Shown: piece after piece, positions 10,388 to 43,909 of the stretch
Layout: each line of letters starts with the position of its first letter
Position numbering within the stretch: position 1 is the first letter of the stretch
Assembly: GCA_964570965.1 (NCBI GenBank)
Contig: CAZNAX010000004.1
Location: forward strand, 1 to 59,801
Direction of reading: 5' to 3'
Length of the DNA: 59,801 nt
Source: an uncultured Desulfatibacillum sp.
GTDB lineage: Bacteria > Desulfobacterota > Desulfobacteria > Desulfobacterales > SpSt-501
Program-made: the position numbers and the translations under genes
The notes under the pieces: model-generated
Told to the model about the DNA's origin: nothing
Databases searched by the model: none
What the model saw: the letters and a program-made list of their open reading frames with translations, nothing else

Positions 10388-10969
10388 TCAGAAAAGCATG
10401 TAAAAAGTGGCCAGGTTGGTTCCATTCGTATAGGCCGCGCTGCCGGAAATCGACCCGGTCTGCCAGTTGCCGTCATCGTATTTGGTGTCAATTTCGAGGC
10501 AGACATCGGCCGGAAGGTTGTAGAACAGAAGATAGTGGGTCAGTGGGGTGGCGTTTCCCGGAGGGTTGACCCATTGGACCTCAACCGTATCTCCAAACGG
10601 ATGCGTGGGCGCGTTGGTTCCGTTGAAGGTCCCGGAGATCAATCCGGCCAGGCTCAGATCGCGAAAAACTTCGAAGCGTTCGGCAGCTTCGATCTGGCCG
10701 TTCCCGTTACCCTCCGCATCAGCGCCGTTGGGCGGGATGGGCGCCAGGTTTTCATCGCCGGGATAAACGCCATATTTGTCATAAAACGTCATGACCCCTG
10801 CACGCAATTCGTCGGCCAGCTTGACGACGCGCTTGACCTTGGCGTTCTGCACCATGGCCTGACCCTTCAGAACGCCGCCGATCAGCAGCCCAATGATCAC
10901 CAGAACGATAGCGATTTCAACCAGGGTAAACCCCGCCTGGTCCTTTCGAATTTTTCTGATCGTAGCCAT
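10388..10969 (-). CDS. Type IV prepilin (probable major pilin)
   Basis: QAG|FTLVEIAIVLVIIGLLIGGVLKGQ; three tandem ATGs (10975/10972/10969), last best spaced from SD AAAGGA. Confidence 0.88.
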   Translation of the reverse strand: MATIRKIRKDQAGFTLVEIAIVLVIIGLLIGGVLKGQAMVQNAKVKRVVKLADELRAGVMTFYDKYGVYPGDENLAPIPPNGADAEGNGNGQIEAAERFEVFRDLSLAGLISGTFNGTNAPTHPFGDTVEVQWVNPPGNATPLTHYLLFYNLPADVCLEIDTKYDDGNWQTGSISGSAAYTNGTNLATFYMLF

Positions 10970-11017
10970 CATCATGTTCCTTTCACGCTCTAAATGAATT
11001 GCCTTGGTACAAAATCC

Positions 11018-15367: not shown

Positions 15368-17245
15368 TTAGGTTGCAATGGCGGCTCGAACGACGTTCGA
15401 CAGTTCGGCCAGCTGGTAGGGCTTTTGGAGAAAACCGTCGGTATGTCGGAGCAAGTTCCCGCTTTCGACATGTGCCAGACTGTATCCGCTGGACAGGATG
15501 ACCTTGGTCGCGGGATGGTTTTTCCGGATGATTCCGAGCAACTGGTCCGCCCCGATGTCGGGCATCACCATATCCATGATCACCATGTCGATCTTGCTCG
15601 TATGCGGATGGAACCTGTCGGAGGCCTCCTGACCGGAACGGGCTACGATGACGGCGTAACCCAAGCGTTCCAGCATTTTGGTAACCGTTACGAGAACCAC
15701 TTCCTCATCGTCGATCACCATCACCGTTGCAATTGGCGGCGTCGCCGGCTGGGGAGCTTGCGCTCGATAACAACAGCATTTATTTCGGCCCGTATTCTTG
15801 GCTTCGTACAGCGCCTCATCGGCCTTTTTGATGAGGCCTTCCACATCCACTTCGCGAGCGCTCTCCATGGCCGCGACGCCGAAGCTCATGCTCACGGCGA
15901 TGGGCTTGTCATTGTAGCGCAGCTTCAGCGACTCAACGCCCTTGCGCAACCGTTCCGCCGCTTTCATGGCGTCGCCGGGTTCGGTCATCGGCAGGATAAT
16001 GGCGAATTCTTCACCGCCGTAGCGAGCGATTTGGTCCGATTCGCGCAGCATCAGTTTGAGCTGCGCCGAGACACACCGCAGGGCATGGTCACCGGCGAGA
16101 TGTCCAAAAAAATCATTGATGGATTTGAAATGGTCGATATCGGCCATGATGATCGAGAGCGGCGTGTTGTAGCGGATCGCACGCCTCATTTCGTGTTGAA
16201 GATTCTCCAAAAAGCGGTTGTGGTTGTTTAGCTGGGTCATGCTGTCCAGGCCGAGCTGCAGCTTGATTCTTTCCAGATCCTGACTCTGGGTGTGGACCTG
16301 ATCCACGAGTTCGGTGGTCAGCTCAGCCAGCTCGTTTCGGGACGTCTCGATGATGTCGATATACTCTTTTTCGTCGACCTGGATCTCAAAGATCGGGAAA
16401 ATACCTTTTATGTCCGCCAAAATCTGCTCTGCAATCGCATACGGGTCGACTGCCGATGTCATTCCATAGGCGCTCATTGCTTTTTCGATCGGGGCGTACG
16501 CCGAGCTTGGGTGGTGATTCGCATGATTAAACAAGTCGATGTACAAAGAAGACAGGTGCAGGATCTTAGCCTGGAATTCAATATCGCCGGAGGGTTGGCT
16601 CAACCGCTCGGGGGCATGATGCGCGCCGATTGGCGCTGAAAAAGCGGGGGGCAGCCCCCAGCCATGGGTGATGTACTCGCCCACCTCCATGTGGTTGAAT
16701 TTGAGCAGCGCGCTTTCGATTTCATGCAGGGCCGTCCCGTTCGACCGGGCCTTGGCCAGCACCTCGCCGTAGGCGGCGGGCATGGATTGGGACATGATCA
16801 ACATGCCGATGTCTTGCAGCAACCCCAGAAAAAAGGCGTTTTCGCCATGCTGTTTGTTGGCTTTTTCGGTAATCAGCCGGGCTGCGACTGCTCCGATGAG
16901 AGAATCCTTCCAAAACTGGACATGATCAAAACACCCATTGGTTTTATTCGAAAAATTATTGATCAGAGAAAAACTGAGGGCGAGGTTTTTGACCGCATTC
17001 ATGCCGAGGTACATCATCGCCTGATGAACGGAGGTGATCTGATTGGACAATCCGTAAAACGACGAATTCACCACTTGCAGCACTTTTGCACTCAGCGGTG
17101 CATCGGAGGAGATGATCTCCGAAATTTCCCGAATGTTGGGTATCTCGCGGCGCATCGCCTGCAAAATTCGAATGGCCACACCCGGCAGAGTGGGAAGCTT
17201 GCCAATTTTACGCGCAATGTCTTTGAGTGACGCATGTGCCTGCAT
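15368..17245 (-). CDS. HDOD-GGDEF-REC diguanylate cyclase
   Basis: LPTLP..A, ISSDAPLSAKVLQVVNS, GLLQDIG (HDOD); DIDHFKSIND.FGH.AGD, RESD I-site, GGEEF; C-terminal REC with DD, D, SSGY, KPY. Confidence 0.92.
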   Translation of the reverse strand: MQAHASLKDIARKIGKLPTLPGVAIRILQAMRREIPNIREISEIISSDAPLSAKVLQVVNSSFYGLSNQITSVHQAMMYLGMNAVKNLALSFSLINNFSNKTNGCFDHVQFWKDSLIGAVAARLITEKANKQHGENAFFLGLLQDIGMLIMSQSMPAAYGEVLAKARSNGTALHEIESALLKFNHMEVGEYITHGWGLPPAFSAPIGAHHAPERLSQPSGDIEFQAKILHLSSLYIDLFNHANHHPSSAYAPIEKAMSAYGMTSAVDPYAIAEQILADIKGIFPIFEIQVDEKEYIDIIETSRNELAELTTELVDQVHTQSQDLERIKLQLGLDSMTQLNNHNRFLENLQHEMRRAIRYNTPLSIIMADIDHFKSINDFFGHLAGDHALRCVSAQLKLMLRESDQIARYGGEEFAIILPMTEPGDAMKAAERLRKGVESLKLRYNDKPIAVSMSFGVAAMESAREVDVEGLIKKADEALYEAKNTGRNKCCCYRAQAPQPATPPIATVMVIDDEEVVLVTVTKMLERLGYAVIVARSGQEASDRFHPHTSKIDMVIMDMVMPDIGADQLLGIIRKNHPATKVILSSGYSLAHVESGNLLRHTDGFLQKPYQLAELSNVVRAAIAT

Positions 17246-17525: not shown

Positions 17526-17552
17526 TCAAGATCCTATGAAACCGGCCGATAG
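17526..17552 (+). promoter_or_regulatory. Candidate sigma28 promoter for unknown gene pair
   Basis: TCAA-N15-GCCGATAG, 35 nt upstream of ATG 17588. Confidence 0.6.
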
Positions 17553-17587: not shown

Positions 17588-18922
17588 ATGACCGGTATGG
17601 AAACCGACTTCAAGACCGATTTTGAATCTCTGGAACCGAGCGACCTGAGATTCGGAGATGCCGAATCTCCGGAACCAGCCGGGCTGCCTCCCGCCGCTGC
17701 GGATTTTCCGGAACCCGCCGGAAAAACCCCCGCCAAACGCCGTCTTTTCCGCCCGGCGCTGGCCATGCTTGCCTTGGTTGGTGCGATTTCTGCCGGTGTC
17801 TGGCTGTATGCGCGCCCGCCGGGGCTGGCAGCAACCCGGGTTGCAAGCACATCTCCGTCCGAGTCGGCCATCGACGCTGCCAGCGCATCCGCCCCGGCGG
17901 CCGTTGCACCGAGCTCCGAAACAACCGAAGATTCAAGCGGTTGGGCGATCAAACTGAGAGAAGTCGATGAGGTGCGGCGCCTGCTTCACGTCAAGAAAGA
18001 TGCCATCCTGCGAGTGCAGCAGGATTACCGCTACGGCATCCTCGAACTCGAGGAAGAAACCAAGCATCTTCTGAAGCAGGCCCGCATCGATTCGCTGGTC
18101 CTCGCCCGCAAGAACAGCGAGGTCGATTTGCTGCTGCAAAACATCCAACGGCGTCAGATGTACAGTGAAGCGCTCGCTCAGCCGCTGCAGTGGATCGATG
18201 CGGCCAGCGAAGAGCTTCTATATCTGAAGCGCCGAGCGTCGATCGACCTTCTGGTGGCGGCAGTCGCGGAGGGCATCGATATGCAGCGGCATCTATACGA
18301 CATGGATCTGGCCCTGCAAAAGTTCCAGCCGACCGCGAGCCGGCTTGCAATCCATCCAGGGCCGATGACCGCAGCATCCCTGGACGTCATTGCCAAGCGG
18401 CTGATTGAACAATCCAAGCTCATGCAAGTGGTACCCGGCGACGACCGTAATCGGGAGATCGTGGCGGAGGTTTGCAGCGGAAACCTGACGGCGGCGGGAG
18501 AGTTGTCGAGGCTCAGCCTCAAGGGCGCCCGCTGCTTGGCGGAATCCGATGCGAAGCAACTGTTTCTGAATCGTGTGACGGAGCTGACTCCGCTCGCCGC
18601 ACAGAAGCTCTCGGAATGGCCGGGCGAATGGCTCTGCTTGAACGGCCTTGCCAAGCTCCAGGCGGATGTCGCCGCACACCTTTTTGCATGGCAGGGCGCC
18701 TGGATTTCTTTGAACGGGCTCGGCGAGCTATCGGTCGAAGCGGGCCAACACGTGGCCGGATGGAACGGCCGGCAATTGGAACTCATGGGGCTGCACAGCC
18801 CATTCAGTGCGGAGCACCTAATGCGGTGGGAGGCTGCCGGAGGCCGCTTGTTCGTTCCGGACACCCTCCGCCGCGCCATCGACCTTGCGGTCGGAAAAGC
18901 CCCTGGGAATTCGGACTCATGA
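17588..18922 (+). CDS. Hypothetical membrane-anchored protein: TM, coiled coil, 24-aa LRR-like repeats
   Basis: Acidic Pro-rich N-terminus, TM ALAMLALVGAISAGVWLY, repeats of L..L....A..L..W.G.WL.LNG. Confidence 0.75.
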   Translation: MTGMETDFKTDFESLEPSDLRFGDAESPEPAGLPPAAADFPEPAGKTPAKRRLFRPALAMLALVGAISAGVWLYARPPGLAATRVASTSPSESAIDAASASAPAAVAPSSETTEDSSGWAIKLREVDEVRRLLHVKKDAILRVQQDYRYGILELEEETKHLLKQARIDSLVLARKNSEVDLLLQNIQRRQMYSEALAQPLQWIDAASEELLYLKRRASIDLLVAAVAEGIDMQRHLYDMDLALQKFQPTASRLAIHPGPMTAASLDVIAKRLIEQSKLMQVVPGDDRNREIVAEVCSGNLTAAGELSRLSLKGARCLAESDAKQLFLNRVTELTPLAAQKLSEWPGEWLCLNGLAKLQADVAAHLFAWQGAWISLNGLGELSVEAGQHVAGWNGRQLELMGLHSPFSAEHLMRWEAAGGRLFVPDTLRRAIDLAVGKAPGNSDS

Positions 18923-19497
18923 TGGTCCTGCTCATCCGCAAGACGACGGAGATCGTCGGATGGATTCTGTTAGCGGTTTGCGCCTGCCTGGCATCCGACG
19001 GGGAACCCGGGGGGGAGCTCAACCGGGCCTTGGAGGAGATCAAGAGCACCGCCCGGCTCATCGACGACAGGTCCGCCACGGCGGCGGCGGTGCAGGGGCA
19101 GCTGCAAGTCCAGGCCGAAGCGCTATCGGCCGAAATCCGTCAGGAACGCCGCCGCTGCAGCGCCGGCAGCTTCCAACAGGCTCTTCAGATCAACCGCATC
19201 CGCTACGATTTGCTGGCGCTGCAACAGGTGACGGGCTATCTGGGTCAACTGGAAGAACGGCTCTCCCACCTGCGCACCGCCGCAAACACCTTGAACGTCT
19301 ACCGCGATCAGGTTCGGGATGATCGCCTCATCCTTCGGGCGTTAAATGACCTCGATAGCTCCGAGCTTCTGCGGCAGGTGCAGGAGGCCGTCGGCGAATA
19401 CCGTCGGCAGAGCGGCGCTCCGCTCCTGAAGGTTCCGGCCGCCCACCGTCCCCCCGAGCTTGAAATGCTGTGGAACGACCTCGTAAAGGCCCGTTGA
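18919..19497 (+). CDS. Hypothetical exported/membrane coiled-coil protein, paralogous to the upstream gene's helical domain
   Basis: ATGA overlap with upstream stop; hydrophobic N-terminus IVGWILLAVCACLA; helical repeats. Confidence 0.65.
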   Translation: MMVLLIRKTTEIVGWILLAVCACLASDGEPGGELNRALEEIKSTARLIDDRSATAAAVQGQLQVQAEALSAEIRQERRRCSAGSFQQALQINRIRYDLLALQQVTGYLGQLEERLSHLRTAANTLNVYRDQVRDDRLILRALNDLDSSELLRQVQEAVGEYRRQSGAPLLKVPAAHRPPELEMLWNDLVKAR

Positions 19498-19512: not shown

Positions 19513-19869
19513 TTACAGCAGCTTCTGGTCGATCAGGTGCTGCATGGCGCGTTGGCCGATGGTGGTCACGGCGCTGATGGCCTGGACCACGTGGTAGGTC
19601 GCCTCGGAGAGCACACCGGAGTTCATCATCACCAGCGCCGCGTTGAGGCTCTTGTCGATACTGCCCCACATCTCCGGCGACGTCATTTTCTTGGACAGAT
19701 GGATCTCGTTGGCGATCATCCCGATCAGCGGCCGAAGAAAGCGTTCCGCGGCATGGCGGTCATGTTCGGGCACCCCGTTGTAAATTTCAAGCAACTGGGA
19801 GACCATGAGCAGGCCGGCCTTGGCTTTCTCGCTTTGAGAGTAAGCTAAAATGGCATCTTTGGTTTCCAT
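19513..19869 (-). CDS. Hypothetical all-helical protein
   Basis: 118 aa, SD GAGG upstream, amphipathic helices, fits the gap between flanking genes. Confidence 0.7.
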   Translation of the reverse strand: METKDAILAYSQSEKAKAGLLMVSQLLEIYNGVPEHDRHAAERFLRPLIGMIANEIHLSKKMTSPEMWGSIDKSLNAALVMMNSGVLSEATYHVVQAISAVTTIGQRAMQHLIDQKLL

Positions 19870-23952: not shown

Positions 23953-24714
23953 CTAGGCGGATGCGTCGTCGGCTCGTCCAACCGCGGCACCGGCGCTGCC
24001 GGATGATGCGGCCGACCGGTTGAAAAACTGAAGCTTCACCGATCCGATCGCGATGATATCCAGATCCCTCAGCATAACCGACTTCTTGATGGGCTGATCG
24101 TTAACCCGGGGCTTGCAAATCCCGCCGGCATAACTCAAGTAGTACCCGTCCGGCCGCTGACTGATGGTGGCGGCCGTCCAACCGACCAGCAACCCCTTGA
24201 CCACGATCTCGGAGGTCGGGGCCTTTCCGATTTTGATGAGCTTGCTGAAAAGATCCAGTTGGCCCTGGCCGCCGGACAAATACTCAAGATAGCCCGAGGC
24301 ATCGTCATGTCGCAGCAGCGGTTTCGGAACCACCGGAGCGCTTTTCTGCACCATCAAGCGGTAGTTGCTGGTATCCATCACCATGGTTTTGTCGATTTCA
24401 GCCGGAGTGCCGGCGGCGGCGTCCTCCTCGGTTGAAAAAACCAGAAAATGTTTTCCGATACTGACGATATCGCCATTTTTCAACCAATGGGAATTAACCA
24501 GGCGCTCGTTGACGAACGAACCGTTTTTGCTCTGAAGGTCCACCAGTACAAAGGCATCACCGACCGAATCGATCTTGGCATGATGCCCTGAGACCGCCAG
24601 GTTTTCGATGACGATGTCATTATCCTTGCGCCTGCCAATCGTCAGTGATTTGCCCTTGTCGACGAGATACCGGCCGAGAACGTTGTCTTTGAATTTGAGT
24701 GTAATGTTTGGCAT
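23953..24714 (-). CDS. Tandem FHA-domain protein
   Basis: FHA1 IGR..ND..VSGHHA..DLQSKNGS intact; FHA2 IGK..TS..VGWTAA degenerate; DKTMVM linker. Confidence 0.88.
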   Translation of the reverse strand: MPNITLKFKDNVLGRYLVDKGKSLTIGRRKDNDIVIENLAVSGHHAKIDSVGDAFVLVDLQSKNGSFVNERLVNSHWLKNGDIVSIGKHFLVFSTEEDAAAGTPAEIDKTMVMDTSNYRLMVQKSAPVVPKPLLRHDDASGYLEYLSGGQGQLDLFSKLIKIGKAPTSEIVVKGLLVGWTAATISQRPDGYYLSYAGGICKPRVNDQPIKKSVMLRDLDIIAIGSVKLQFFNRSAASSGSAGAAVGRADDASA

Positions 24715-24747
24715 TCGTAGCAATTTCCTGCAGACTTTCAAGCGATT

Positions 24748-25548
24748 TCAGTTAGCTGCTAGTCGCTGCCGCACCTGATAAACCCATTTTATGAAAACCG
24801 AGCGATGTTGGCGCCGCACGCCGGCCACTCGCAGAACGACGGCCGAAATATTGTCGTCACCGCCGCGTTCGTTGGCCAATTGCACCATCGCGCGACACGC
24901 GGAACCCGGAGGATGGGCGGTGGTGAGCGACATGATTTCCCGCGGCGCAACCTTGGTGCTCAATCCGTCCGAACAGATGACCAGTTGATCGTCCTTGAAG
25001 CAGTTCAATTCACAGATATCGGCCTCGACCAGGCTCTTCGGACCCACCGCGCGCGTCAGAATGTTGCCCATGGAGGGAACCTGCGCATCTGCCGGCAGCG
25101 CGGCCTGGAGGGTGTGGGGGACCGAGAGCAAATTAATCGTTCCGTTTCGCACCAGAAAGATCGGGCTGTCCCCTACGTTGGCCGCGATCACCGTGTCTTC
25201 GGAAAAATACACCGCGGCCACCGTTGATCCCATCCCGCGATAGTCGTCATGTTCGGTGGCGGTTTGGTGCACGACTCGGTTGGACCATTCGATTCCTGCC
25301 AGCAGTCGATGCGCCTGGGAAGAGAGGTTGCCAGGCAGGCCCGTATGGTTGTCTGGGTCCTGACCTTTGGCCAGAAAATCGCATATGGATTGCACGACCA
25401 AGGTGCTGGCGACTTCTCCGGCCCGGTGGCCACCCATTCCGTCGGCCACCAAATACAATCCCCGGGCATCATCGACAAGGATGCGGTCTTCGTTGGACTG
25501 CCTTTTCTTGCCAACGTCGGAAATGCCAGCTGATTCAACAATCACCAT
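24748..25548 (-). CDS. PP2C/Stp1-family Ser/Thr protein phosphatase
   Basis: DVGKKRQSNED, VADGMGGH, NVGDS, CSDGL, GGDDNIS. Confidence 0.93.
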   Translation of the reverse strand: MVIVESAGISDVGKKRQSNEDRILVDDARGLYLVADGMGGHRAGEVASTLVVQSICDFLAKGQDPDNHTGLPGNLSSQAHRLLAGIEWSNRVVHQTATEHDDYRGMGSTVAAVYFSEDTVIAANVGDSPIFLVRNGTINLLSVPHTLQAALPADAQVPSMGNILTRAVGPKSLVEADICELNCFKDDQLVICSDGLSTKVAPREIMSLTTAHPPGSACRAMVQLANERGGDDNISAVVLRVAGVRRQHRSVFIKWVYQVRQRLAAN

Positions 25549-42715: not shown

Positions 42716-43909
42716 ATGGCGTCTGATTTCGATTTTTCCGGAAAGCTGAGCTTCCTGAACCTCGGCGAGCTGCTGCAACTGCTCGGCAGCAGCTCCGCCA
42801 CCGGCACCCTGCGGGTCTACAGTCCCTTCCGGGCGGAAGCCGGCCGGGTCGTTTTCGAAAACGGAAACCCCGTCGATGCAACGGACGGGGCCCAGTCCGG
42901 TGCGGCGGCTCTTTTCACCCTTTTCGGCTGGATGGAGGGACGATTCGAATTTACTCGGGAGAGGGTGGCGTGTAAGCGAACCATCCAAAAGGGCCGGATG
43001 GAGCTCATTTTAGACGGCCTGCGCCTGCTCGATGAAGGCAAGATCGCCAAGCTCGGACCGGCGCCTTCGACGGCAGCCTCCAGCCAAGTGGAAGCCCCGG
43101 TATCCGCCGGCCGCTCATCGGACATGCCCCCGATCATCAAGGGGCCCTTGGTCGACTACGCCTACGTCATCGACGAGGAGAGCTTTTACGACGGGGATGA
43201 AATCGTGCACGAGGGCGCCCACGGGAACTGGATCTGGGTGATCCTGGAAGGGGCCGCCGAAATCATCAAAACCACACCGAAGGGCCCGCTTAAGCTGCTG
43301 CGGGTGGGCGATGGCGCTTTTCTCGGCAGCGTGGCGTCTCTGCTCATCGGCGACAATGTCCGCAGCACCACCGTCGTCGCCTGCGGAAACGTTCAGCTGG
43401 GCATGCTGGACTCCCAGCTGCTGGCCGGTGAGCTGGCCAATCTTTCGGCGGATTTCAAAAGTCTGATCAAGAGCCTGGACAACCGTCTGAGGTGCGTGAC
43501 CGGGATCGGCGCCGACGCCCATGCGCGCACCACGACCTTCATGGATCTAATCAAGGGAAAAAAAATGGCCCTCAAGGAAGGCCAGCATGAGGAGCGGCTG
43601 TTCCGGATTCGCAACGGCGAAGTGATCGTCGCCCGCAGCCTGGGTGCTGGTCATGTCCCGCTGGCCCAGCTCCAGAAAGGCGATTTTTTCGGGCATATCC
43701 CGTTTCTGACGATCGGCCATGAGCCTTTCGCAGCGGCCGTGTTTTCCTCCCCCGACCTTAAATTGGCGGCGGTGGACTCACAGAAGATAACCGCCGAATA
43801 CAAACAGCTGTCGGCTACCCTGCGCAACATCATCGAGTACCTGGCCGCTTGCATCTCGGCGACAACCTTGGTAACTATCAATCGGGTCAGCCGGTCCGGC
43901 ATCCGGTAA
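42716..43909 (+). CDS. DUF4388 (PatA_N) domain plus two cNMP-binding-like domains
   Basis: FSGKL..L.LGELLQLL..TG.L..GRV.F..G.PVDA..L..W.EG.FEF; EG..G.W.WVILEG..FLG..RSTTV; second GDFFG domain. Confidence 0.85.
   Translation: MASDFDFSGKLSFLNLGELLQLLGSSSATGTLRVYSPFRAEAGRVVFENGNPVDATDGAQSGAAALFTLFGWMEGRFEFTRERVACKRTIQKGRMELILDGLRLLDEGKIAKLGPAPSTAASSQVEAPVSAGRSSDMPPIIKGPLVDYAYVIDEESFYDGDEIVHEGAHGNWIWVILEGAAEIIKTTPKGPLKLLRVGDGAFLGSVASLLIGDNVRSTTVVACGNVQLGMLDSQLLAGELANLSADFKSLIKSLDNRLRCVTGIGADAHARTTTFMDLIKGKKMALKEGQHEERLFRIRNGEVIVARSLGAGHVPLAQLQKGDFFGHIPFLTIGHEPFAAAVFSSPDLKLAAVDSQKITAEYKQLSATLRNIIEYLAACISATTLVTINRVSRSGIR

Follow-up and report, generated by a model that had tools for sequence, protein, structure and literature searches.

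In a 59,801-nucleotide (nt) stretch of DNA from an uncultured Desulfatibacillum sp. (contig CAZNAX010000004.1 of GenBank assembly GCA_964570965.1; hereafter the window), we analysed a pair of adjacent genes that encode paralogous proteins. Gene 1 (17588-18922, +) is an open reading frame (ORF) of 444 amino acids, and gene 2 (18919-19497, +) is an ORF whose translation has 192 amino acids. The two share an ATGA overlap (18919-18922, +), in which the TGA of gene 1 (18920-18922) runs into the ATG of gene 2 (18919-18921). The overlap predicts translational coupling of gene 1 and gene 2, as an initial annotation of this DNA, made from its letters, had already read it. A 4-nt stop/start overlap is also found in at least five related loci from several lineages (L003, L017, L018, L037 and L057). 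The true start of gene 1 is probably the ATG at 17597, because close homologues open with METDFKTD. Upstream of gene 1 lies an HDOD-GGDEF-REC (receiver) gene (15368-17245, minus strand), and beyond it an MSHA-like type IV pilus cluster with an MshE-type ATPase, T2SS-F, two N-methyl pilins, a secretin and a PilM-like gene. Both the HDOD-GGDEF-REC gene and the pilus cluster are divergent from the pair, in agreement with the initial annotation, which had placed the genes opposite a cyclase/pilus cluster.

Paralogy and architecture of the two proteins

The initial annotation had called the two proteins paralogs, pointing to an ungapped 71-residue segment with 13 identities. We found exactly 13 identities over the 71 residues (gene 1 residues 153-223, ELEEETK..SIDLLV; gene 2 residues 68-138, ALSAEIR..RDDRLI). 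The count was therefore correct, but as evidence it carries no weight, because 500 of 500 shuffled versions of gene 2 reached at least 13 identities in some ungapped 71-residue window (mean best 15.1). The best real window of this kind has 15 identities and is located elsewhere in both proteins. Similarly, BLASTP of gene 1 against gene 2 gave a best E of 0.22 at a different place and did not recover the register of the segment. The relationship emerged from family profiles. The gene-1 hidden Markov model (HMM) matched gene-2 ORFs down to E 1e-22, and the gene-2 HMM matched gene-1 ORFs to 7e-14. Using hhalign, we obtained a probability of 89.7% (E 1.8e-6) with 20 close gene-2 relatives and of 99.5% (E 2.3e-22, 166 ungapped columns) with 92 diverse gene-2 relatives. 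The profile alignment spans gene 1 residues 113-278 and gene 2 residues 28-192 and pairs E153 with A68, which is the very register in which the 71-residue segment had been aligned by hand. The real alignment scored 160, whereas reversed profiles scored 16, column shuffles 11-23 and shuffles of 7-column blocks 14-29. The initial annotation had foreseen that a profile alignment might show nothing beyond generic coiled-coil similarity; because no control exceeded 29, generic coiled-coil composition is rejected as the source of the similarity. Further, an L-E-x-I/L-W motif, which is not heptad-like, is common to both proteins at the C-terminal end of the domain. We conclude from these results that the two genes are true paralogs within a single shared domain.

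We then have the following architecture for gene 1 from an AlphaFold2 model built with 101 sequences, which had a mean predicted local distance difference test (pLDDT) score of 85 and scores of 97-98 over residues 113-435. Residues 1-55 (17588-17752, +) form an acidic, disordered tail (pLDDT <50) that ends in KRRLFR and is presumably cytoplasmic. In gene 1 relatives the tail has 12-39% Asp/Glu and a length of 20-375 residues. A single transmembrane (TM) helix, PALAMLALVGAISAGVWLYA, follows at residues 56-75 (17753-17812, +) in the sequence and corresponds to a modelled helix at residues 54-75. There are four Lys/Arg residues in the 10 residues before the TM helix versus one just after it, and because this cluster precedes the helix, the topology is likely N-in/C-out, with the tail in the cytoplasm and the remaining domains in the periplasm. 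Residues 76-112 are a low-confidence Ala/Ser/Pro linker. The helical-hairpin domain, delimited by the hhalign match to gene 2, occupies residues 113-278 (17924-18421, +) and is modelled with helices at residues 113-164 (52 residues), 177-195, 197-223, 232-245 and 265-277.

The C-terminal ~150 residues of gene 1 are a leucine-rich repeat (LRR) domain (residues 279-435; 18422-18892, +), which was absent from the initial annotation. A cap helix is followed by approximately five 24-residue repeats with the pattern W-x-G-x-W-L-x-L-N-G-L, in which the Trp, Gly and Asn are invariant and for which the model shows alternating strands and helices. In gene 1 the repeats read WLCLNGL, WISLNGL and QLELMGL. 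When the LRR-domain profile was compared with the PDB, the best match was LRRC15 (1.5e-5), and variable lymphocyte receptors (3.5e-4) and LGR5 (1.3e-3) were also matched; 60 of the 60 PDB matches listed were LRR proteins or designed or engineered LRR scaffolds. Foldseek matches of gene 1 to LRR proteins were weak, and the curated Pfam LRR model had no match in gene 1 or in 101 relatives at E<=0.01. Two cysteines that flank the first repeat, C296 and C316, are invariant, and C350 is nearly so. We infer a capping disulfide between C296 and C316, as in extracellular LRR proteins.

The gene 2 model had a pLDDT of 90.5, with a hydrophobic N-terminal helix at residues 3-23 and further helices at residues 30-80, 92-142, 148-165 and 181-190. 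Residues 1-25 correspond to a Sec-type signal peptide, and residues 28-192 to the same helical-hairpin domain as in gene 1. The N-terminus reads MMVLLIRKTTE-IVGWILLAVCACLA followed by SDG, and has an RK pair, a 14-residue hydrophobic core and a CLA/S site; it looks like a cleavable Sec signal peptide. Judged by eye, most of the 92 N-termini in the gene-2 family are canonical Sec signal peptides with AxA-type sites. Gene 2 is thus predicted to be an exported protein that is probably soluble and not membrane-anchored. We dropped the idea that gene 2 is a lipoprotein, because the lipobox around the conserved Cys is a poor one and the Cys is missing from many relatives, making Sec export and signal peptidase I more likely. 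One gene-2 relative does have a lipobox (LSAC). In another member of the family, P0212, a prepilin-type leader, KGFTLVELMMIVVILGL, replaces the Sec signal peptide (Pfam N_methyl, E 2.6e-6), so the helical domain can sit on a pilin-like N-terminus. Other architectures combine an acidic tail and a TM helix with the domain but no LRR, or a multi-TM region with the domain. Because of the family signal peptides, the lipobox and prepilin variants and these other architectures, the helical-hairpin domain is best described as a putative exported module.

These results refine the initial annotation, which had described two membrane coiled-coil proteins in the periplasm, each with a hydrophobic N-terminal anchor. 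The extracytoplasmic location is consistent with the Sec signal peptides of the gene-2 family, the lipobox variant and the Lys/Arg bias at the gene 1 TM helix. Hydrophobic segments are indeed present in both proteins, but that of gene 1 is an internal TM helix after a 55-residue tail and that of gene 2 resembles a signal peptide. The term membrane coiled-coil was loose, since AlphaFold2 predicts a helical-hairpin bundle in both proteins, together with the LRR solenoid in gene 1. In the single-chain models, the 50-residue helices of each protein form an intramolecular antiparallel hairpin or bundle.

The cytoplasmic tails contain short recurring motifs. Near the N-terminus of gene 1 we found DFESLEPSDL (residues 11-20; 17618-17647), a short acidic motif of the form F-x-x-L-(D/E)-x-x-(D/E)-L. 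The F-x-x-L-D/E part recurs in the tails of distant clades (GFQALDSSDLSDM, FAALDPSDLSDL, AFTGLSSEETDDL and DDFNSLDDDE), and the motif is possibly a docking site for a cytoplasmic partner. Tails of distant relatives, both of gene 1 and of the gene-2 domain, carry one to five copies of an amphipathic motif of the (S/T)EQEKMD(R/H)LMAELQG type. Carriers are L058:5062-7227, L061:2942-5032, L057:4837-7014 (LNQDDISKLFGD), P0180, P0266, P0286 and P0269, and the motif occurs in 0 of 97 tails in the window's clade. We take it to resemble the N-terminal CheY-P-binding peptide of FliM, LSQAEIDALL. As a feature of the gene 1 tail, a CheY-binding motif similar to LSQxEIDALL was rejected, given that it is absent from 120 of 120 gene-1 matches obtained in the first search for homologues (P0001-P0120) and is present only in some distant relatives.

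Homologues of gene 1 form more than 129 clusters at 90% identity. For gene 2, a word search returned 20 close clusters, and exhaustive HMMER searching returned 186 representatives (50% identity) at E<=1e-3. A gene-2-family ORF directly follows gene 1 in 90 of 96 non-redundant loci with enough downstream sequence. In one 136-kb ENA contig, a 528-residue product (P0083) joins a gene-1 homologue to a gene-2 homologue via ~60 unrelated residues, and is probably a frameshift or an assembly error and not a natural fusion. All 59 genome matches were metagenome-assembled genomes and none was an isolate. Their labels are nearly all Desulfobacterales, Desulfatiglandales, Thermodesulfobacteriota or "delta proteobacterium", and include the Olavius symbionts Delta 1 and Delta 4; two are labelled otherwise, as Hyphomicrobiales and Gammaproteobacteria. 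We found no plasmid or phage relatives. For this reason, and because the housekeeping flanks are conserved, we dropped a mobile element or defence island as an explanation, and the locus appears to be an old chromosomal site and not an island.

Searches for known relatives were negative. Neither gene 1 nor gene 2 had a match in Pfam, NCBIfam or PADLOC, and when relatives were scanned against Pfam one by one, no consistent family appeared in 101 gene-1 relatives or 92 gene-2 relatives. When PDB sequences were searched with profiles of the two families, that of gene 1 in full, the only matches were helical ones attributable to chance. Foldseek comparison of both models with the PDB, and of gene 1 with viral models, gave nothing at E<=0.001. 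We found no description of either protein in the literature. The initial annotation could not assign the proteins to a named family, and this still stands: both families and their shared domain are undescribed in the libraries and papers that we searched.

A putative sigma-28-type promoter ahead of the operon

The consensus of sigma-28 promoters is TAAAGTTT-N11-GCCGATAA. We located a putative sigma-28 (FliA)-type promoter at 17526-17552 (+), consisting of the -35 element TCAAG (17526-17530), a 14-nt spacer and the -10 element GCCGATAG (17545-17552). This TCAAG-N14-GCCGATAG motif ends 36 nt before the annotated ATG of gene 1. In 1.4 Mb of related loci, searched on both strands, T[TCA]AAG-N13-15-GCCGATA had 47 matches, including 31 immediately ahead of gene 1 and 11 ahead of its upstream neighbour (together 42 of 47). 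When we compared 28 distinct gene-1 sites, the T(T/C)AAG-N14-GCCGATA elements and their spacing were constant, while the spacer sequence and the flanks varied. The gene-1 sites had position weight matrix scores of 20-40, compared with a background in which the best score per 2.3 kb was 8.8 at the 95th percentile and 12.9 at maximum. In clades where the exact heptamer is missing, its place is taken by the variants GCCGAAA or ACCGATA. We conclude that the conserved motif has the properties of a phylogenetic footprint of a sigma-28 (FliA)-type promoter. Its presence, and its conservation in 28 distinct orthologous sites, agree with the promoter that the initial annotation had proposed ahead of the pair, and the pair would be expected to depend on sigma-28 in vivo. 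Neither a terminator-like site nor a sigma-70-like promoter was found around the operon. Gene 1 appears to be expressed, because wetland metatranscriptome contigs are identical to parts of it (17610-17857 and 18689-18839).

The heptamer GCCGATA is also frequent in the window as a whole, with 18 occurrences compared with 6.3 expected from dinucleotide shuffles, and 0 of 100 shuffles had as many. A -35 partner accompanies two of these 18 heptamers, and the other 16 are probably an effect of codon usage. Stray matches of the full motif in related loci include one at L024 8088, which lies within a coding region, and a minus-strand site in L035 after which there is no ORF of at least 70 amino acids. 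L029 and L038 have minus-strand sites similar to that of L035.

A candidate accessory of the flagellar motor

In the most divergent clade, gene 1 is an operon neighbour of fliL. We identified seven loci (L062, L063, L068, L069, L071, L072 and L073) in which a gap of 8-15 nt separates the end of fliL (PF03748, E 8.7e-24 and 5.6e-25) from gene 1. In four of them (L062, L063, L072 and L073), motA-motB are found upstream, and a TAAAGTT-N-(G/A)CCGATA motif is located directly after motB and upstream of fliL. The same promoter type therefore sits in a bona fide flagellar cluster of the phylum. L062 and L063 represent two Desulfatiglandales genomes with gene 1 at 28% identity, and their gene order is lytic transglycosylase, motA, motB, a conserved CTAAAGTT-N-GACCGATAA motif, a 95-residue ORF, fliL, gene 1 (15 nt later) and gene 2, followed by DnaJ-domain genes and then by HD-GYP, HDOD and GGDEF genes. 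The other five loci came from a metagenome scan tuned to the distant clade, with gene 1 sharing 40-44% identity with the L062 copy; in the two of these five with motA-motB, motB is directly followed by TAAAGTTCT...GCCGATA. L073 also has, two genes downstream of gene 1, an FlhB C-terminal-like gene (PF01312, 3.6e-23).

Two additional ORFs were observed in this clade. The conserved 95-residue ORF between the post-motB sigma-28 motif and fliL (L062:4889-5176 and L073:4478-4765) has no Pfam match and a C-terminus that reads ...YDGNGKLINMTPPGYVPL. The 403-residue ORF between gene 1 and the FlhB C-terminal-like gene in L073 (L073:8281-9492) could be, judged by its position, a hook-length-control-like protein.

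Taken together, we favour a tentative model, to which we assign a probability of roughly 45%, in which the pair is a sigma-28-controlled, translationally coupled periplasmic heteromer with an accessory role in the flagellar motor. The two genes would form one operon transcribed from the sigma-28 (FliA)-type promoter, with translation of the two coupled. The gene 1 product would be a bitopic inner-membrane protein with a cytoplasmic acidic tail, a TM helix and a flexible Ala/Ser/Pro linker, and its periplasmic part would be composed of the ~165-residue helical-hairpin domain and the short LRR solenoid. The gene 2 product would be Sec-exported and would consist only of the paralogous copy of the helical domain. 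In our proposal, a heteromeric stalk anchored by the gene 1 TM helix most likely arises from pairing between the helical domains, because the proteins are paralogous, because their genes are adjacent in the 90 of 96 loci described above, and because the stop/start overlap is frequent. Such a stalk would position the LRR some nanometres away from the inner membrane, within reach of a partner in the periplasm to which it could bind. The most likely partner would be the flagellar motor, whether the stator, FliL, the rod or a periplasmic scaffold, because of the promoter and the motA-motB-fliL-gene 1-gene 2 order in the most distant clade. We infer the motor association for the window's own lineage as well, and the pair would be a lineage-specific motor accessory of Desulfobacterota.

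Several observations weigh against this model. The window contains no flagellar genes and no sigma factor genes over its 59,801 nt, and most Desulfobacterales loci, like the window, have no flagellar gene within ~10 kb. The neighbours there are housekeeping genes, the MSHA-like pilus cluster and cyclic di-GMP (c-di-GMP) enzymes. The motility or adhesion regulon suggested by the initial annotation is partly supported: fliL next to gene 1 in the seven distant loci provides a link to motility, and in the window's lineage the partner may be flagella or pili. Even among the distant loci, L072 and L073 are without gene 2 and have the different 403-residue ORF, which belongs to no family, after gene 1. 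Further, the only other sigma-28-type promoter in the window precedes a pilin gene, and the regulon may concern pili or adhesion. Finally, Foldseek gave no significant structural relative for the helical domain.

The pair can be compared with three known motor components, and its role would be analogous to that of FliL, MotX/MotY or FlrP. FliL (PF03748) is likewise a bitopic inner-membrane protein with a periplasmic domain that is encoded beside motA-motB. Gene 1 differs from FliL in its helical hairpin and LRR, its acidic cytoplasmic tail and its secreted paralog; neither gene 1 nor gene 2 matches PF03748, and FliL is a separate gene immediately upstream of gene 1 in the seven loci. MotX and MotY form the T-ring of the polar motor in Vibrio and are encoded by sigma-28-dependent late genes. 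They resemble our pair as exported proteins under a flagellar sigma factor and form a periplasmic scaffold needed for stator function. Unlike our pair, MotX has Sel1 repeats and MotY an OmpA-like domain, the two are not mutual paralogs, and they are not membrane-anchored. We detected no sequence or fold match between MotX or MotY and gene 1 or gene 2 in the Pfam scans or with Foldseek. FlrP is a Sec-exported periplasmic LRR protein that forms a structural part of the Vibrio polar motor and binds the rod and FliF loops (PMC13626733). It is a free 21.5-kDa LRR protein, without the TM helix and helical hairpin of gene 1. We liken the two by description, and FlrP is not among the PDB matches of gene 1 by profile or Foldseek.

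Flagellar motors of different phyla differ mainly in their periplasmic accessory structures. We know of no periplasmic motor accessory of Desulfobacterota, and none was found in the literature that we searched. The operon is a concrete candidate for one, and its build, a membrane-anchored LRR on a helical stalk together with a secreted paralog, is unusual. The candidate is also timely, as the LRR protein of the Vibrio polar motor was discovered only recently. Lineage-specific accessories of this sort, periplasmic and belonging to the flagellar regulon, are already known, while both families and the domain are undescribed in the sources that we searched. The analysis defines two unannotated protein families that are linked by one shared new domain. 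It also yields a clean set of sigma-28-type promoters, defined by phylogenetic footprinting, in a phylum for which genetics is almost absent. Promoters of this type also precede a type IV pilin gene and, in numerous relatives, a gene with a TIR domain; these two associations underlie two of the alternatives considered below.

Alternative readings and neighbouring genes

A different way to view the pair is as an envelope module for the change from motility to adhesion, in which the sigma-28-type regulon also covers surface appendages and the pair has a role in pili, adhesion or surface sensing. The LRR stalk would then cooperate with type IV (MSHA-like) pili or take part in sensing surfaces, and would feed the neighbouring c-di-GMP enzymes. 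The second sigma-28-type site in the window (11045-11019, -) is a near-perfect TAAAGTTT-N12-GCCGATAA and lies 44 nt before the major type IV pilin gene (10388-10975, -), which is inside the MSHA-like cluster and encodes a leader ending in ...KDQAG before FTLVEIAIVLVIIGLL (G/FTLVE). A flagellar-type sigma factor may therefore drive the major pilin in the source organism. There is a precedent in Synechocystis, where a group-3 sigma factor drives pilA1 (PMC2532724). The divergent position of gene 1 relative to the HDOD-GGDEF-REC gene and the pilus cluster also fits a role in adhesion, as does the prepilin leader of P0212. In addition, c-di-GMP genes are found beside the pair in three clades in differing arrangements: REC-HD-GYP in L003, L044, L048 and L054, a CheD-HDOD fusion in L051, and HDOD/GGDEF/EAL in L062 and L073. 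However, c-di-GMP genes are very common in these genomes, so finding them repeatedly near the pair may be a coincidence. The pilus cluster stays next to the pair only in the closest relatives, and the only conserved operon partners that we found are fliL and motAB. We consider the adhesion role rather unlikely, although it is the most probable of the alternatives.

We also considered a split receptor of the Toll-like type. In this reading, a ligand would be sensed by the periplasmic LRR together with the paralog, and the signal would pass through the acidic tail to a cytoplasmic pentapeptide-repeat/TIR protein, with defence or NAD-based signalling as the output. The reading arises from a soluble pentapeptide-repeat and TIR protein (380-410 residues) whose gene immediately precedes gene 1, in the same orientation, in 16 genome and 6 metagenome loci of one large clade (L003:6772-7974, L005:6641-7789 and 20 further loci, such as L021, L034, L077 and L088). 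The gene often has its own T(T/A)AAG-N14/15-GCCGATA motif. Its TIR region matches the defence and generic TIR models of PADLOC and retains a W-V-x-x-E motif, which we take to hold the catalytic Glu of TIR NADases. Like a Toll-like receptor, gene 1 has an extracytoplasmic LRR and a single TM helix. Unlike in a Toll-like receptor, the TIR domain is on a separate, soluble protein, and gene 1 has the opposite topology, in which the N-terminus is inside and the C-terminal part is the LRR. The window lacks the TIR gene, and so do its nearest and its most distant clades. In addition, neither gene 1 nor gene 2 matches a PADLOC model, and the pair occupies a conserved chromosomal site with no plasmid or phage relatives instead of an island. 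This reading is improbable. Its fuller form, in which the pair is the sensing half of a gene-split bacterial Toll-like receptor under flagellar sigma-factor control, with the LRR on a heteromeric helical stalk, is more improbable still; if true, it would couple envelope sensing to NAD-derived signalling in motile cells. In the TIR-containing clade, an ORF of ~131 residues follows gene 2 on the same strand (L003:10403-10801, L038:8030-8425, L047:5458-5853 and others). This ORF matches no Pfam family and is missing from the window; in that clade it may represent a fourth gene of the operon.

A third possibility is that the helical domain is an exported membrane-remodelling or membrane-stress module related to ESCRT-III/PspA. 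The top Foldseek matches of gene 2 and of the helical part of gene 1 were models of Vipp1, CdvB2, IST1/CHMP1B and the Snf7 family, and the helix lengths, two of ~50 residues arranged as a hairpin and then shorter ones, resemble the ESCRT-III/PspA fold. However, all ESCRT-III/Vipp1-type matches had E >=0.03, and superposition on solved Vipp1, CdvB2 and IST1/CHMP1B gave TM-scores of ~0.2-0.45 with a root-mean-square deviation (rmsd) of 10-31 A. A viral Snf7-family model reached a TM-score of 0.50 only when normalised to its own length. Microtubule inner proteins were also among the best Foldseek matches of the helical domain, again with E >=0.03 and a large rmsd. There was no profile match, and the PspA and Snf7 Pfam families (PF04012 and PF03357) matched none of the 92 gene-2 members. 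Characterised ESCRT-III/PspA members act on the cytoplasmic face of the membrane, which counts against this reading because the helical domain here is predicted to be exported. We rejected the similarity as non-significant and regard the relationship as highly improbable. Lastly, the idea that the two are unrelated hypothetical proteins, alike only in generic coiled-coil composition, would explain the chance-level pairwise identity and the BLASTP result, but it was rejected with near certainty because the profile controls exclude chance, and the reciprocal HMM matches and the shared non-heptad motif also oppose it.

The surroundings of the operon are largely conserved. Downstream of gene 2 and convergent with it are a 118-residue ORF, LarB, a membrane coiled-coil protein, GuaA and EF-P. 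The 118-residue ORF (19513-19869, -) lies only 15 nt from the gene 2 stop and had no Pfam or NCBIfam match, and the block from this ORF through LarB and the membrane coiled-coil protein to GuaA is kept in nearly all or most Desulfobacterales loci. In a relative at 60% identity (L001:3376-9821), an insertion with PHA synthase genes (PhaE, PhaC), a GAF protein and a PhaR-like gene separates HDOD-GGDEF-REC from gene 1, and the sigma-28 motif is kept. The remainder of the window consists of housekeeping genes (GreA, UvrB, UvrC, Mdh, PurC, EF-G, Dxs, XseA, GlmM and RecC). Amid this stretch there are signalling genes, namely one for an FHA-domain protein beside a PP2C phosphatase (23953-25548, -) and one for a protein with DUF4388 and a cyclic-nucleotide-binding domain (42716-43909, +).

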